From NCBI GenBank assembly GCA_902500055.1, contig GCA_902500055.1_4131.1: a stretch of 64,000 bases of DNA; one strand, written 5' to 3'. The translations under genes and the position numbers were made by a program. The stretch comes from Escherichia coli (GTDB taxonomy: Bacteria > Pseudomonadota > Gammaproteobacteria > Enterobacterales > Enterobacteriaceae). Below, one piece after another: positions 10,316 to 53,156 of this stretch. Each line of letters starts with the position of its first letter. Position 1 is the first letter of the stretch. The notes under the pieces were generated by a model that searched no databases, was not told the origin of the DNA, and was given only the letters and a program-made list of their open reading frames with translations.

Positions 10316-11468
10316 ATGCTACCCTTTGGAAGAATTATCACATCATCAAAAAAGAACATACAACCTTCTGTAACAAAAATAGCTTCATCTGATACAACAG
10401 TTTTTGCCCTTATGTCAGATGGTACGTTGTACAGTAGAGGCTCTCAAGAGTTTGGGCAAATGGGTATAGGTAATATTATAACACAAACCAAATGGGTTTT
10501 GTGCAATACAAACGTAGAAGATATATGGGTGCGGGTATGAGTCAACCTTAATAAAAAAGAAAGATAATACGATGTGGTACGCTGGAAATGGTGCATCATT
10601 CGGATTATCAACTGATAAGTCAACAACATGGGCTTCTGCAAAGATAGTGTTTGATAGAATAACCGCCCTAGGCAAAACAATAAAACAAATTGCAGTTAGT
10701 GCAGGTGCATTAAGCGTATTATGCACAGACAACACTATATGGAATACGGGCTATGGTAGTTATGGTCAACTGGGAAATGGTAGAAGTACCGATTCACTTT
10801 CATCATTTGTACAAGGAACAGTACCTACTGGAGTAACACCATCCAAAATACTGGCAAATTTTCTTATGCAAGGATTTATTGGAACCGATGGGAGATTGTA
10901 TTATACTGGTGCAATATCAGGCGTAGGTACAACCGACATGACGTTATATTCAAAGTACACGTTATGTTCTCAAATAACTAATACCTATACGGTGAAAGAT
11001 TATACAACAAACTCAAGTTACTTCGCTTTTGCTATAGCAAGTAATAATAGTAGTAATAAATTATTTGCATATCATGGTGGTGGACAATACTTTGGTCAGT
11101 TAGCAAATGGTTCTACATCACAAACATATATTTCGTTAAGACAAACAACACAAGCACCAGGTGATATAATAAGAAGCAGTGTGGGTTATTCATATTTTTC
11201 TAATCATATTATAACTTCATTAGGTGTTTACGCAACTGGTTATAACACAGGCGATAACGCAGGTCAATTAGGTATAGGTACACAAACAGATGTCTCAGCC
11301 TATACCAAATGTGTACTACCAATAGAGATGAATATGAATAACGTATATGTTACAGCAACTTTATACAGAACTTACTTAACCGATGGTATACAAATTTACA
11401 GTACTGGACAATATGTTACAGACGGTGGAGTTGCCAGTACTGTATTTGTCAAAGATTCACCATTTTAG
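10316..11468 (+). pseudogene. RCC1-like paralog 10, reading frame broken by a +1 shift between 10518 and 10540
   Basis: The MLPFGRIITS... frame stops at 10538-10540. The +1 frame is open from 10518 and reads GCGYESTLIKKKDNTMWYAGNG, which continues the paralog alignment to 11468. Confidence 0.6.
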
Positions 11469-12111
11469 GAATATTGTACAAAGTGTATGCGGTTATTTTA
11501 GAACTCTTTTTAAATTCATCGTAAAGATAATTCAAAATTTTGGAGCATTCAATATACTTTTCAATATCTTTATGGATTAATGAGTACTGAAACATTAAAT
11601 CAGATGATATAGTGTAGGTACTACCTTTTAAACTGTTTAAAATATCACAGATTTCAGGGTTTACTGGTACTTCGTCAAAATTATCATCTAAAACATTTAT
11701 TTCAAAATCAAAGCTATCTTTGTTTTTGATTAATTTGATAATAGAATCACCATAAACATTATATTGTTTTAATGGATTTACTACAATGTTAAAAAGATTG
11801 GATGTATTACAATCAATATCCATAAAGTATGTATTATCATTGTACTTAATATTGAAACATCCGTACTCAATAAAATCACCAGGAGTTATTGATGAGTTTC
11901 TTCTCGTTTCAACATAAGAAGCTTTAATTTTGTTTTTATGTAAAAGAGTAATAAATTTCTTAGACTGTTTAGCACCAGCTAAGTAAGTATTATAACTTGG
12001 TCTTTTAAAGATTATAGGACTAGACTTCTCGCCAGAGAAATATTTTTTTATAAATTTACGTTGTTTAACAAAATAGTTTTTATAAAACAAACCTAATTTT
12101 GATTTCATCAT
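11449..12111 (-). CDS. Hypothetical protein, distant member of the F-Q-x-S motif family
   Basis: Intact 220-aa ORF, convergent with the array. Carries the C-terminal motif SDLMFQYSLI. Confidence 0.7.
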   Translation of the reverse strand: MMKSKLGLFYKNYFVKQRKFIKKYFSGEKSSPIIFKRPSYNTYLAGAKQSKKFITLLHKNKIKASYVETRRNSSITPGDFIEYGCFNIKYNDNTYFMDIDCNTSNLFNIVVNPLKQYNVYGDSIIKLIKNKDSFDFEINVLDDNFDEVPVNPEICDILNSLKGSTYTISSDLMFQYSLIHKDIEKYIECSKILNYLYDEFKKSSKITAYTLYNIPKMVNL

Positions 12112-32844: not shown

Positions 32845-33633
32845 TTAAATGTTAGTAGTATAGTACTTGATTTCGTTTTGAATTGCAAGTTCTATTTGTT
32901 TATTGAAAAGAATTCCAAACTCTTTGATTGATTCACAATCGAATTCAATAGAAAAAGTATACTCTGGTACACGTACATTGTCAATACCCAAATACTCTTT
33001 TATGTAAATTTTAATGAGTTCACATAGTGCAGTACTAAGACATTGAATTTCAAAATGTTTTGCACCTTTGTCAAAATACTTGAATGCATCAATATCACCT
33101 ACAATAAAACTATTCTTTAATGTAGTGAATAGGTTCTCAGGAAACACGGTAATAGGTGACATTGATTTAAGAATGTATGTATCTTTGGCATTCTTAATGT
33201 ACTCAATGAAGCAGTAGTTAACGTCAGGCTCGATTGAACGATCCGCGTTATGATACCAGTGTTTAAACTCACTGTATTCAGCAAACTTATGCTGGCGTAA
33301 TGCGTTACAATCTTCACACAGTGCAGTCATGTTCTCTTTATCATTACCGCCCTGAAGACAGTCCAGTACATTATGGTCTAACGTCATGCGTACAAGGCGT
33401 TTCCCTTTAAGTACATAAGGTCTGAATTTATAACGATCTTTAGTACTGTGCTTGTGTAAAGTGAATACTACATTTGATTCACCGCAACAATCACATTTAA
33501 AGCCATCACGTGACATTACATGAATGAGTTTTCGAGTATTTGGACCAAACTCTGATTTGGTAATGTTACCTACAATTTCTGATGGTTGGTAATATTTTGA
33601 ATTCCGTCGAATCAGTTCATCTATAGTGCTCAT
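32845..33633 (-). CDS. HNH endonuclease
   Basis: CDCCG...TLDHNVLDCLQGGNDKENMTALCEDCNALRQHK (Cys pairs plus an H-N-H core). Confidence 0.75.
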   Translation of the reverse strand: MSTIDELIRRNSKYYQPSEIVGNITKSEFGPNTRKLIHVMSRDGFKCDCCGESNVVFTLHKHSTKDRYKFRPYVLKGKRLVRMTLDHNVLDCLQGGNDKENMTALCEDCNALRQHKFAEYSEFKHWYHNADRSIEPDVNYCFIEYIKNAKDTYILKSMSPITVFPENLFTTLKNSFIVGDIDAFKYFDKGAKHFEIQCLSTALCELIKIYIKEYLGIDNVRVPEYTFSIEFDCESIKEFGILFNKQIELAIQNEIKYYTTNI

Positions 33634-33634
33634 T

Positions 33635-33865
33635 TTACATTAATCCTTCTATGCTACAACCAATAAGTACTTTTTTAACTTCAACAACTCGTACCAAATA
33701 GAATCCATTTGAAAAGTTAAAACTATACATTTGTACTAAGGCATCTGCTTCAGATTTCGCACGGATACATGATAGATAAATTTCACGTATATCACCATCT
33801 AACGATACTTGTTTCTCTGCATCGATGACAATAGAACGAATCTCAAAACGAACACCATAACTCAT
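33635..33865 (-). CDS. Hypothetical protein
   Basis: Intact 76-aa ORF in the tiling. Confidence 0.6.
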   Translation of the reverse strand: MSYGVRFEIRSIVIDAEKQVSLDGDIREIYLSCIRAKSEADALVQMYSFNFSNGFYLVRVVEVKKVLIGCSIEGLM

Positions 33866-34071
33866 TGAGTTTGTCCTACAATAAGCTTTGTGTTAGTATT
33901 ACTATTGTAACACCACATTTGTTCTTTATTAACTGTAATCCAAATATCTTTGTTTACTTGTTCGTATGTACTATCACGTACTGCTATGCATTGATTCATG
34001 GAATTCATTGGGGTTATTTGTATACCGGAATTAACAGAGAAAGCGACTACTAAAAAGATTACTGAATTCAT
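33862..34071 (-). CDS. Small secreted protein
   Basis: N-terminal signal-like MNSVIFLVVAFSVNSG. Confidence 0.6.
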   Translation of the reverse strand: MNSVIFLVVAFSVNSGIQITPMNSMNQCIAVRDSTYEQVNKDIWITVNKEQMWCYNSNTNTKLIVGQTQ

Positions 34072-34135
34072 TGGATATTCCTTAATGGTTAATCATCCAT
34101 CTCTTCGAGATGTCTGTTCGCTTCTAATACTACGT

Positions 34136-34164
34136 ATTCTACGCGAATGATTAATAACTGTCAA
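34136..34164 (-). promoter_or_regulatory. Sigma-70 promoter TTGACA-N17-TAGAAT
   Basis: The reverse complement reads TTGACAgttattaatcattcgcgTAGAAT. Confidence 0.7.
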
Positions 34165-34660
34165 GGACTTTTAATATTGACGGGATTTGAGGAAGGGATT
34201 TTTCTTCCCCCCCCAAGGAGGGAAATTTGACGCTGATGGTATCAGAGCTATTGCATTGAAGATTACTCATAACGAGTGCGAAAGCGGGTCATCCTGTTTC
34301 TCTCTACTTCAGTTTCATATGACGGTCTACACTTTTAAACATAGTGTATCTTCATTAAGTATCTATGCAATCAAATACTTAATGTGAGTACTCAAATTTT
34401 GGACGCAACTTTCCTGTACAAAATTCGATAACTCTCCCTTAGATAATTCGTAAGGTGTTATCCTTATATGTCTATCAAGGAACCACCAGCTATCCTAACG
34501 TGGTTCTTTATACAGCCGCATTGCCGTGAGGGGTTCAAACTATGCCCACATCTAACGGGTTTCTTTTGCTGTTCGCACTGTCGGACTGCTCAACTGCCCT
34601 CTACGTTTTCGAGTGGATCAGGTACATGAATATCATGCCAACAGAATTGTACAAGATAAT
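34165..34660 (-). ncRNA. Candidate structured non-coding RNA region; class unknown and strand tentative
   Basis: About 500 nt without a credible ORF and visibly GC-richer than its flanks. It has many local hairpins (for example GGAACCAC...GTGGTTCT and TTAAGTAT...ATACTTAA) and a C8 run. It is bounded by the sigma-gene terminator and the next promoter. The extended -10 TGaTATAAT lies near 34655-34663 on the minus strand. Confidence 0.35.
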
Positions 34661-34695
34661 TATATCACAAACTTTTACTTCATCCCATAAAAAAA

Positions 34696-34713
34696 GGTTG
34701 GCATAAGCCAACC
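34696..34713 (-). terminator. Rho-independent terminator (bidirectional form)
   Basis: GGTTGGC-ataa-GCCAACC flanked by an A-run and a T-run, directly after the sigma gene stop. Confidence 0.75.
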
Positions 34714-34721
34714 TTTTTTCT

Positions 34722-35687
34722 TTAGAAATCTTCGTATTCGTACCCTTTTGCAAGTACTAACTTCTTAAGCTTTTGCATAGCTTCACTGTACTTTCGGTGT
34801 ATTGATGAACGGGATTTAACATATTTTCCATTATCATCAACAAAACCATTATCAGCAATCTCACGAAGCGTTTCAGGTTCATATTCACCTAGACCATGAA
34901 CACGCTGGATAATCTCACGTTCTTTAGTACTCAATTCGTTAGTCAGTTCATTGATAGCATAACGTAAAGGTGCACGGATACTATCAACATTGAGGTTAAA
35001 ATCAGAAGCAGGTGAATGAATAATGTCACCTAATGTACCATCTGTAACACCGTCTAATGGTGCATCCAGCGAAGTGTATTCGCTTTGAAATAACAAACAA
35101 TTATTAACATGCTGAATCTCAATCCCAGTACCCTCTGAGATTATTTCAGGAGTTGGGCGAACACCATGTTTACGCATATATTCCTGACAGAATCTTTTTA
35201 CTTTGATCTTATGAACACTCATATAACGTGGGAAGTGTACCATATAGTTAGCGTCAGAACTTTCGTTATAGACTGTCATGTAAATACTAGAAGAAGCATA
35301 GGTAATGAACTTAACATTCTTATTAAGATCAAAGGTTTTTAGTGCTCTCATGAACCCCTCAACACCATATGAAATCTTATCTTCAAATGGGATATAACAA
35401 GTACATTTACTTGCTACATCAATAATCAGTCCATAATTGTAACGAACTAACAGTTCAGTGTTTTTCTTTACATTGATACCAGCTTGAATATCACGAATTA
35501 GATCTTCATTGGAAACATTTGGTGGTCGCTTAAGTGTAATATTATATTTGAAACTGCTTTGTACTTTACCTTCATTTTCATCTTTATCTTCAACGAAATC
35601 TAAGGCTTCTAGTGTGTTGACTTCTTCATTAGCAAAACATTCATCCAGAACTTCTTCGGCAATTGTATTTAAATCAAGCTTTTTCAC
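34722..35687 (-). CDS. Sigma-70 family RNA polymerase sigma factor
   Basis: Region 2-like LLVRYNYGLIIDVASKC...EGFMRALKTFDLNKNVKFITYASSSIYMTV. Region 4-like LSTKEREIIQRVHGLG...TLREIA...SRSSIHRKYSEAMQKLKK. GTG start after a GGAGAT SD. Confidence 0.85.
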   Translation of the reverse strand: MKKLDLNTIAEEVLDECFANEEVNTLEALDFVEDKDENEGKVQSSFKYNITLKRPPNVSNEDLIRDIQAGINVKKNTELLVRYNYGLIIDVASKCTCYIPFEDKISYGVEGFMRALKTFDLNKNVKFITYASSSIYMTVYNESSDANYMVHFPRYMSVHKIKVKRFCQEYMRKHGVRPTPEIISEGTGIEIQHVNNCLLFQSEYTSLDAPLDGVTDGTLGDIIHSPASDFNLNVDSIRAPLRYAINELTNELSTKEREIIQRVHGLGEYEPETLREIADNGFVDDNGKYVKSRSSIHRKYSEAMQKLKKLVLAKGYEYEDF

Positions 35688-35708
35688 TTACATCTCCTAA
35701 TGACGAAA

Positions 35709-36206
35709 TCAAAATCGATATACATTAATATTATCATCTGTGAAGCAATCATGGTTATGCACATCCATGAAAGTACTAAACACTTTATCATATAAAGTTG
35801 TATGTTCTTCATGAATAGCAGCATCTACCATGTATTCTCCACCACTTCCCATAAAGAAAGTGTAGTCTTCATGTAGATATTCAAGTTTTTTAATAAACTT
35901 TCCTTTAGTTAAAATCATATGAATAACATAATCTTTAGAAAGAAGCACACAATGGCAACTTAACTTTCTGTCAGGTATAACTGGTACTTTATTAATTAAC
36001 CAATCCAGTACTTTATCAATTTCACTTACTGCCCCACTAGCACTGAATAAACGGTCATGTACATATAAAGTTTTTTGATTAACAACTCCATATTGATATT
36101 TTGGTCTTAGTGGAAAAAAACCAAATAAGTTTCGTGGTATAGTTGACGTAACTCTAGAATCGGTAATCAATAAATTTAATCGTTTATCAATATAAACAGT
36201 TGTCAT
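35709..36206 (-). CDS. HslV / proteasome beta-subunit-like N-terminal-threonine peptidase
   Basis: Starts MTTVYI (Thr directly after Met) and has ITDSRVT, FSASGAVSE and FFMGSGGEYMVDAAIHE. These are collinear with HslV TTIVSV, IAGDGQAT, FAGGTADA and IAIGSGGPYAQAAARALLE. Confidence 0.6.
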   Translation of the reverse strand: MTTVYIDKRLNLLITDSRVTSTIPRNLFGFFPLRPKYQYGVVNQKTLYVHDRLFSASGAVSEIDKVLDWLINKVPVIPDRKLSCHCVLLSKDYVIHMILTKGKFIKKLEYLHEDYTFFMGSGGEYMVDAAIHEEHTTLYDKVFSTFMDVHNHDCFTDDNINVYRF

Positions 36207-50121: not shown

Positions 50122-50426
50122 TGAGCCATCTGTGAGTCGAACACAGTACCTAACGATTCGTATAATCTATAGTTTTCACTATAGTACGGACTATATCATC
50201 ATCCCATAGGGATGCCGGACGCTAATGATGTATTACACAGTAAGATCGTACTGTACCATCTAGTCTCTGCACCTTCCCAATACGCTTATTGGGCTTGGCT
50301 CAGGATTGTCATCACCATTACGTGTTAAGATTTCCCTGAATTCATCCAGTTTTTCAATCACCATTACTGATGAAAGTCACCATTGTCGATGAGTCGTTTG
50401 CTCTAACCACCGTGAGCTAATGGCCC
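50122..50426 (-). tRNA. tRNA with CAU anticodon (elongator Met or Ile2), split by a group I intron
   Basis: 5' exon at 50389-50426 is GGGCCATTAGCTCACGGTGGTTAGAGCAAACGACTCAT. 3' exon at 50122-50158 is AATCGTTAGGTACTGTGTTCGACTCACAGATGGCTCA. Joined, they give a full cloverleaf with anticodon loop CTCATAA. It lacks the initiator features (1:72 is paired and there is no GGG/CCC in the anticodon stem). Confidence 0.85.
50159..50388 (-). mobile_element. ORF-less group I intron (230 nt) in the tRNA anticodon loop
   Basis: The conserved core elements are read directly. P-like TTCAGGGAAATC (50329-50340), Q-like AATCCTGAGCC (50297-50307), R GCAGAGACTAGA (about 50261-50270), S GATATAGTCC (50188-50197). 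The 5' splice site follows U and the intron ends in G. Confidence 0.85.
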
Positions 50427-50433
50427 GATTTAG

Positions 50434-50670
<237 letters not shown>

Positions 50671-50676
50671 AAATTA

Positions 50677-50695
50677 ATTATATCAGTACTGAAAA

Positions 50696-53128: not shown

Positions 53129-53156
53129 ATTATATCACATCTTTTTGTGCTGTCCC
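53129..53156 (-). promoter_or_regulatory. Promoter GGGACA-N16-TATAAT (extended -10 TGa) in front of tRNA-Arg
   Basis: The reverse complement reads GGGACAgcacaaaaagatgtgaTATAAT. The tRNA starts 10 nt after the -10. Confidence 0.55.

Follow-up and report, generated by a model that had tools for sequence, protein, structure and literature searches.

What does a jumbo phage carry in 650 nucleotides (nt) that encode no recognizable protein? The stretch of DNA analyzed here (the window) is 64,000 nt of contig GCA_902500055.1_4131.1, from an assembly assigned to Escherichia coli. Its source phage is an Asteriusvirus jumbo coliphage, approximately 99.5% identical to 121Q, phAPEC6, and G17. Positions 33800-35000 share 99.0-99.7% identity with the Escherichia phages phAPEC6, 121Q, G17, Sharanji, and others, all of them Asteriusvirus jumbo myoviruses of ~350 kb. 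The gap in question (34072-34721) lies between a sigma-factor gene and the next open reading frame (ORF) on the minus strand, the strand of all genes flanking the locus, and most GenBank entries for related phages carry no annotation there. A preliminary description of the locus had noted an ORF-free region and suggested that it could be a large structured noncoding RNA (ncRNA), a replication origin, a packaging site, or a decayed gene. The absence of protein genes was borne out, as the small internal ORFs (66, 53, 54, and 39 amino acids) have no Pfam match and are not conserved. The comparisons presented here favor the first suggestion and identify positions 34166-34667 on the minus strand, the discrete DNA unit of a family member, as a predicted member of an undescribed large ncRNA family of Rak2-like jumbo phages. 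This assignment draws on a conserved promoter, on the count of G-U against A-C pairs for the two strands, and on a covarying fold with three pseudoknots.

The gap is conserved well beyond the close relatives of the source phage. A sensitive blastn search with the gap as query retrieved 62 phage records, and approximately 34167-34623 aligns at 68-72% identity with distant genera, always within an unannotated gap of 620-680 nt. These distant matches include Serratia phage BF, Erwinia phages of the pEa_SNUABM series, Pectobacterium phage CBB, Cronobacter phage GAP32, Yersinia phages fHe-Yen9-03/04, Xanthomonas phage XbC2, Salmonella phages 7t3/Munch, and one Klebsiella phage. In a comparison of the distant loci with 2.9 kb of the window, alignment was confined to the gap. 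An nhmmer profile matched ~45 loci over its full length, and the genera that carry the family are Asteriusvirus, Mimasvirus, Eneladusvirus, and their relatives. Clustering of the neighboring genes placed the copies in four unrelated syntenic contexts with non-homologous flanking genes, and revealed no neighbor protein common to the copies that could be a conserved partner.

The family is also multi-copy. IMG/VR, scanned with a single conserved motif, yielded several matches per genome, and there are 3-5 dispersed, co-oriented paralogs in each genome. Phage 121Q has three copies on one strand with 72-80% mutual identity, located at 90.2-90.9 kb (the window copy), 192.8-193.3 kb, and 326.6-327.2 kb, the latter two lying outside the 64-kb window. 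Phage CBB has four, at 32.3, 174.4, 258.1, and 336.4 kb, again on one strand. Most records leave these paralogs without annotation. The paralogs within each genome are old. Inside the window, a search for repeats detected no second copy of the RNA and no iterons; the palindrome of the sigma-factor terminator alone recurs. Two-motif pattern scans of genome, metagenome, and viral contigs gave mostly chance hits among the matches listed, so the distribution outside phages is under-sampled, with at least four true loci in metagenomes and at least eight further viral ones. The plasmid sequences searched contained no match.

The sequences conserved across genera also covary far beyond chance, and the comparative check proposed in the preliminary description thereby returned both cross-genus conservation and compensatory changes. 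On an alignment of 36 non-redundant copies (A2), RNAalifold predicted 55 pairs, 31 of which show compensatory changes, and a scan of column pairs added helices that cross one another. The curated fold has 71 pairs in 15 helices with three pseudoknots. In A2, 98.0% of the cells are paired under this fold, compared with 80.7% after shuffling and 37-45% when the pairing partners are slid by 1-3 columns. Pairs changed on both sides number 48, against 33.6 in shuffled alignments (none of 500 reached 48) and 12-17 in slid ones, and compensatory cells number 393 against 104 after shuffling. Since the helices had been picked on A2 itself, the fold was tested on copies unused in choosing them. Three held-out metagenome copies keep 69, 66, and 67 of 70 pairs and differ from the window copy by 14-24 double changes, and a fourth, in which hairpin H8 is absent altogether, keeps 51 of 70. 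The paired cells contain 127 G-U or U-G combinations and 13 A-C or C-A combinations, an excess that identifies the minus strand as the folding strand.

These data bear directly on whether the conserved unit could be an element that acts as DNA only, such as a packaging site or an array of protein-binding sites, or else the remains of a protein gene. The short ORFs of the gap, the small hypothetical proteins annotated there in some GenBank records, and the recurrence of a CGTCA motif are compatible with such an origin. However, the compensatory changes and the 127:13 ratio require a folded single strand of set polarity, and the coding tests are uniformly negative: 499 of 595 indels have lengths that cannot be divided by three, substitutions show no three-base periodicity, the longest stop-free stretches resemble those of shuffled sequences (median 74 versus 64 amino acids), and no Pfam domain is matched. 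Both a coding gene and a pseudogene are rejected on this basis, and nothing was found in favor of a packaging site. An explanation at the level of DNA or of a decayed gene is extremely improbable, being refuted as far as sequence analysis goes.

The predicted fold (Table 1) has its first pseudoknot between the 5' end and the loop of Hc, its second where helix a runs across helices b and c, and its third between the loop of H8 and a strand ~110 nt downstream. The helices are joined by invariant strands, namely AAAAGAAAC, CACGGCAAUGCGGC, AUAAAG, and GAUAGACAUAUAAGG in the central domain, and also UAAGGGAGA, CGACCGU, and ACCCGC. Among the short stems that had been listed in the preliminary description, those corresponding to H4, H5, H8, and H9 are conserved with compensatory changes. 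The CTGAT/ATCAG stem did not hold, as the region of helix f pairs xGAy with CGUC instead, and the transcribed strand does not have the GAAA-capped stem that was proposed for the plus sense.

A peripheral hairpin resembling H7 (AAUUUUG-UACAAUAUAGAUCCGUCC-AAAAUUUG) has an insertion point that differs between paralog groups (A2 columns 380-415 versus 550-590), and a copy from E. coli, discussed below, holds this hairpin at both insertion points (extract L415, 7212-7260 and 7375-7410). It looks like a peripheral domain that was transposed within the RNA. Peripheral hairpins that shift their insertion point are a behavior of large ribozymes and ribonucleoprotein RNAs.

Table 1. Features of the RNA locus in the window and the island copy in E. 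coli. Paired strands are separated by a slash; "double-changed" denotes pairs changed on both sides.
Feature	Position	Strand	Details
Sigma-70-family factor gene	34722-35687	-	Pfam Sigma70 r2/r3/r4
Intrinsic terminator of sigma-factor gene	34690-34720	-	GGTTGGC-loop-GCCAACC, then T run; outside the RNA; upstream boundary
Extended -10 promoter P1, TGATATAAT	34659-34667	-	Would drive the RNA; predicted start ~34650-34652, from spacing alone
Structured RNA body, ~425 nt	34226-34652	-	5' pseudoknot to helix f (xGAy/CGUCA); aligns with distant genera; covariation
5' pseudoknot	34575-34644	-	H1 + Hc; encloses hairpins Ha and Hb
H1 (5' end with Hc loop)	34644-34637/34584-34578	-	8 pairs, 6 double-changed, 95% paired
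Hc	34589-34587/34577-34575	-	3 pairs, 2 double-changed, 100% paired
Hairpins Ha + Hb	inside 5' pseudoknot	-	10 pairs, 10/10 double-changed; Hb loop GAAAAYGUA
Central conserved domain	34451-34572	-	H2, H3, H4, H5 and invariant joining strands
H2	34572-34568/34516-34512	-	3/5 pairs double-changed
H3	34558-34555/34527-34524	-	
H4 (GGAACCAC/GTGGTTCT)	34506-34501/34485-34480	-	6/6 pairs double-changed
H5 (CCTTA/TAAGG)	34466-34463/34454-34451	-	
3' core	34251-34384	-	H8, H9, a, b, c, d, e
Hairpin H8 (TTAAGTAT/ATACTTAA)	34384-34353	-	
Pseudoknot e (H8 loop)	34370-34365/34256-34251	-	5/6 double-changed; 97-100% paired
Hairpin H9 (TACACT/AGTGTA)	within 3' core	-	Covaries
Pseudoknot a, crossing b and c	34323-34319/34292-34288	-	3/5 double-changed; 97-100% paired
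Helix b	34311-34307/34261-34257	-	4/5 double-changed; 97-100% paired
Helix c	34304-34300/34284-34280	-	4/5 double-changed; 97-100% paired
Hairpin d	34277-34265	-	3/3 double-changed; 97-100% paired
G-run hairpin, UUUCCCUCC-UUGG-GGGGGGAAGAAA	34200-34225	-	C8 run on the opposite strand; G run invariant
Conserved 3' module	34166-34199	-	Invariant CAAAUCCCGUCAA (34177-34189), then TAnnAn hexamer; invariant alignment columns
Sigma-70-type promoter of downstream genes	34164-34136	-	TTGACA-17-TAGAAT; 11/12 consensus matches; downstream boundary of the RNA unit
ORF next downstream of gap	33862-34071	-	
E. coli LR-29-1 copy	NZ_AP027515.1 3478954-3479614 (extract L415 6906-7549)		Full-length; profile positions 4-521; E = 6e-115

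The family is also present in the host. Two of 5426 complete E. coli genomes carry the RNA, in identical copies (NZ_AP027515.1 and NZ_CM130020.1). In strain LR-29-1, the copy lies within a 1.4-kb unannotated gap of an 11-kb integrative island inserted between ffs and ybaA; TGTGATATAAT, a terminator, the G hairpin, and the 3' module are all present in it. The island encodes a tyrosine integrase split by IS3, a serine recombinase, and a candidate defense system, PDC-M45 (DuOB, DUF488, and mSLOG/DUF4326). None of the island proteins has a tblastn match in the window or resembles the proteins beside the phage copies, and when the neighbors of ~260-300 amino acids (families F0, F1, and F16) were compared with them by HHalign, all probabilities were below 1%. 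The LR-29-1 copy nonetheless keeps 69 of 70 pairs, and seven compensatory pair changes separate it from the nearest phage copy, which is 79% identical. The presence of the full unit in the island, without any phage protein, indicates that the RNA unit alone moved between jumbo phages and a mobile defense island of the host.

The boundaries of the unit are set on both sides by signals of other transcripts. Upstream, the terminator of the sigma-factor gene also carries a terminator annotation in phages G17 and UE-S1. A consensus terminator scan gave no terminators in 33500-35800 despite this evident hairpin and T run, and the negatives of that scan are untrustworthy. Downstream, the promoter that had been proposed at 34136-34164 is present on the minus strand, and TTGACT-17-TACAAT promoters occupy the equivalent place in the alignment of BF, CBB, and GAP32. 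Between these boundaries, the minus-strand extended -10 element that had been expected to launch a transcript was recovered as P1. Of 40 family members, 38 keep a promoter of this type (TGnTAyAmT), at a distance of 108-202 nt before the CGGCAAUGCGGC anchor. The TGNTATAAT class of extended -10 elements is strongly enriched in the window, where 9.4 sites would be expected and 25 are present. Of these, 20 are on the minus strand (e.g., 50677-50685 and 53129-53137), and two immediately precede the genes for tRNA-Ser and tRNA-Arg; the motif appears to be a main promoter class of this phage. The GC enrichment noted in the preliminary description was confirmed, though it is modest: 200-nt segments over 34100-34700 have GC fractions of 0.42-0.455, and the flanks ~0.30-0.37.

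At the 3' end, an intrinsic terminator (hairpin and T6-9) follows helix f in the E. coli copy as well as in paralog groups C and D, which would yield a discrete RNA of ~430-450 nt. The G-run hairpin (helix 15) follows. Its G run corresponds to the C8 run of the preliminary description, which exists at a position off by one from that given (actual 34207-34214). This hairpin is 98% paired and its variation is nearly all from C-G to U-G (e.g., CG 18, UG 16), which fits a hairpin that likewise exists at the RNA level, on the minus strand. The 3' module behind it has the consensus CAAAYCNCGUCAR in every copy, including those with a terminator upstream of the module. A role for the module as a general phage promoter was rejected, as the whole 64-kb window contains its motif a single time.

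An invariant run of 6-8 G near the 3' end of a promoter-associated structured RNA of ~500 nt is also what would be expected of a replication-origin primer, in the manner of ColE1 RNA II or the R-loop origins of T4, where a hybrid near the G-rich 3' end primes DNA synthesis and the copies would represent multiple origins. Three to four dispersed, co-oriented copies per 350-380-kb genome are consistent with this explanation, and a mobile island that copied only the non-coding phage unit would be expected of a hijacked cis-acting site. Nevertheless, the terminators of groups C and D would end the transcript before the G run, the G run is itself paired in an RNA hairpin with G-U variation, and neither an initiator gene nor iterons accompany the element. 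Such depth of tertiary-type structure, with invariant junctions, would also be unusual for a primer. The replication origin raised in the preliminary description gained no positive support, and GC skew has no inflection at the locus, although skew is a weak proxy where replication uses multiple origins or is driven by recombination. A primer function is accordingly regarded as quite unlikely.

The position of the copies raises a further alternative, that of a cis-acting leader or processive antitermination element of the HK022 put or EAR type, in which the nascent RNA stays with its own polymerase and allows read-through of downstream terminators. Each copy lies directly behind a strong promoter and is co-oriented with the following genes, several paralogs have an intrinsic terminator between the RNA body and the downstream genes, and the presence of several paralogs per genome recalls putL/putR. 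On the other hand, a separate sigma-70 promoter stands between the RNA and the next gene in the window copy, BF, CBB, and GAP32, and the genes that follow are wholly different from one paralog to another and again in the E. coli island. Copies of group B have a hairpin and U run before the RNA body, beyond the suppression of such an RNA, and ~430 nt with three pseudoknots is far above the known elements of that kind. Antitermination in cis is therefore an unlikely, if not unreasonable, account of the family.

Alternatively, the RNA could belong to a known class (group I intron, RNase P RNA, tmRNA, 6S, GOLLD, or ROOL) but have diverged so far that covariance models miss it. Its size and pseudoknot content are within the range of RNase P RNA, tmRNA, and group I introns, the window does contain a true intron of this last type elsewhere, and ROOL and GOLLD are likewise associated with phages. 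A scan of the window against Rfam 15 at gathering thresholds, however, detected only four tRNAs and one group I intron, all away from the gap, where no family was found. Searches at E values up to 10, 5, and 1 (window copy, 12 others, and the E. coli copy) gave scattered terminator-like or chance matches, none of them recurrent, and over 14 copies no Rfam 15 family appeared consistently at even E = 5-10. All weak matches within the gap fall on the terminator hairpin at 34690-34720. The gap did not match the Rfam 15 models of GOLLD, ROOL, HEARO, OLE, raiA, 6S, RNase P, or tmRNA. ARAGORN called neither a tRNA nor a tmRNA in the gap and no tmRNA in the window, and the Rfam tmRNA model likewise found no match. 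The Intron_gpI model is unmatched in the gap while scoring 99 bits on the true intron at 50167-50481, and an intron is excluded by the RNA having its own promoter and sitting between a terminator and a promoter. Likeness to the RNase P CR-V/P4 consensus, to hammerhead ribozymes, and to k-turns was superficial in a by-eye comparison; the topology differs, and by inspection the helix order is unlike that around P4 of RNase P. Descent from a known class is thus very improbable. Full-text literature searches found no description of this RNA family and, by every test available here, it appears to be new, with no detectable relation to described families.

We consider it reasonably probable that the family is a stand-alone, stable RNA that acts in trans, with a fold that binds a partner or is catalytic, and that serves phage-host conflict or RNA metabolism during infection. 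As judged from promoter and terminator motifs, a host-type RNA polymerase would start at the conserved P1, of the promoter class shared with the phage tRNA genes, and the transcript would end after helix f and be released as a stable RNA. Its conserved three-dimensional fold would then bind a protein or nucleic-acid partner or act as a catalyst, and the RNA would function in trans during infection and not as a leader of the adjacent genes. Action in trans is preferred because the unit is self-contained, its neighbors are interchangeable, and the downstream genes have their own promoter. The promoter class in common with tRNA genes and the lone travel of the unit into a defense island argue in the same direction. 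Large RNAs with so much conserved tertiary-type structure are rare, and historically they have been ribozymes, ribonucleoprotein cores, and, lately, RNA-only cages.

Several points weigh against this interpretation. No RNA-seq data for this phage group were found in the literature searched, and the arguments for action in trans are indirect. The window copy (group A) has no recognizable terminator after helix f, and it could therefore be the mere 5' part of a longer mRNA; as a discrete RNA, its 3' end would come from read-through or processing. The 3' module that lies beyond the terminator in some paralogs is unexplained by a simple RNA-gene model. Single-sequence folding energies are unremarkable, with z-scores of -1.74 (minus) and -1.25 (plus), and the case for structure consequently rests on the comparative data. 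In those data, the helices were picked and counted on one alignment, a circularity eased by the results from held-out copies and from slid controls.

A bolder version of the trans-acting interpretation is possible but doubtful. The family may constitute a class of its own among large functional RNAs, new to science (a ribozyme, a self-assembling RNA, or one that sequesters proteins), used as a weapon in the conflict of jumbo phages with their hosts and kept in 3-5 diverged copies, of which an intact one was captured by the defense island as bait or as a decoy that titrates a phage factor. If true, this would be the first known exchange of a large structured RNA between a virulent phage and an immune island of the host. 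More generally, the multi-copy state, the tRNA-gene promoter class, and the lone unit in a defense island suggest a role in infection that was overlooked by protein-centered annotation of jumbo phages. Since E. coli phages that can be cultivated and have been sequenced (121Q, phAPEC6, G17, and PBECO4) carry the RNA, it is directly testable.

The family accounts for 3-5 long "empty" gaps per genome and flags spurious small ORFs in many GenBank records. Small "hypothetical proteins" are annotated inside the RNA gene (3-4 per record), such as GAP32_503A (L005, 1495-1608) and 7t3_0445-0447 (L006), and others in SHEFM2K, E9.1, and JP4. These small ORFs show no conservation and are probably false gene calls. 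In the UE-S1 record, a "repeat_region" is annotated at the RNA gene.

Other features of the window were also recorded. A minus-strand ORF at 32845-33633 (262 amino acids) is described in the G17 record as similar to a 121Q "HNH endonuclease" and has no Pfam match at E <= 0.01; its relatives (family F16) sit upstream of group D copies of the RNA in other phages. The sole switch of GC-skew sign in the window occurs at ~11000-12000 (from +0.16/+0.26 to -0.1/-0.19), where a flip in gene orientation presumably accounts for it. On the minus strand, 50122-50426 contains a tRNA gene whose anticodon is CAU (Met or Ile2) and whose anticodon loop is split by the group I intron. Its 5' exon is GGGCCAUUAGCUCACGGUGGUUAGAGCAAACGACUCAU and its 3' exon ends in CUGUGUUCGACUCACAGAUGGCUCA; the gene was not called by ARAGORN.

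Comparison with known systems places the family among large phage RNAs, with partial likeness to several. Similar to ColE1 RNA II and the T4 oriF/oriG transcripts, the RNA is predicted to be promoter-driven, is structured and ~500 nt long, and has a G run near its 3' end, and the T4 origins also occur as several similar copies per genome. In contrast to them, it has three pseudoknots, invariant junctions, a paired G run, and, in some copies, a terminator upstream of the G run, and it shows neither an equivalent of the antisense RNA I nor a skew signal. HK022 putL/putR are likewise paralogous elements just downstream of strong early promoters and upstream of terminators and co-oriented genes, but the phage RNA is approximately six times larger, is followed by separate promoters, and occurs also in an unrelated bacterial island. 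Among jumbo phages, PA5oct, which is related to 121Q and GAP32, produces four unannotated transcripts of 240-620 nt (ncRNA001-004) that were defined by RNA-seq in ORF-free gaps, two of them very abundant (PMC7318152). Their location resembles that of the present family, and nhmmer at full sensitivity found no detectable homology between the two. ROOL and GOLLD, the large ornate RNAs of phages and prophages that form RNA-only homo-oligomers in cryo-electron microscopy (PMC12286853), may be regarded as the nearest analogues in kind. The phage RNA described here is unmatched by their covariance models and occurs in Gram-negative jumbo myoviruses, whereas ROOL and GOLLD belong to phages of Lactobacillales or the rumen. 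It is repeated as 3-5 paralogs in each genome, and the window copy is not beside tRNA genes. What it has in common with ROOL and GOLLD is a phage-borne RNA of more than 400 nt, with many covarying helices, pseudoknots, and invariant junctions, that is predicted here to form a unit of its own.

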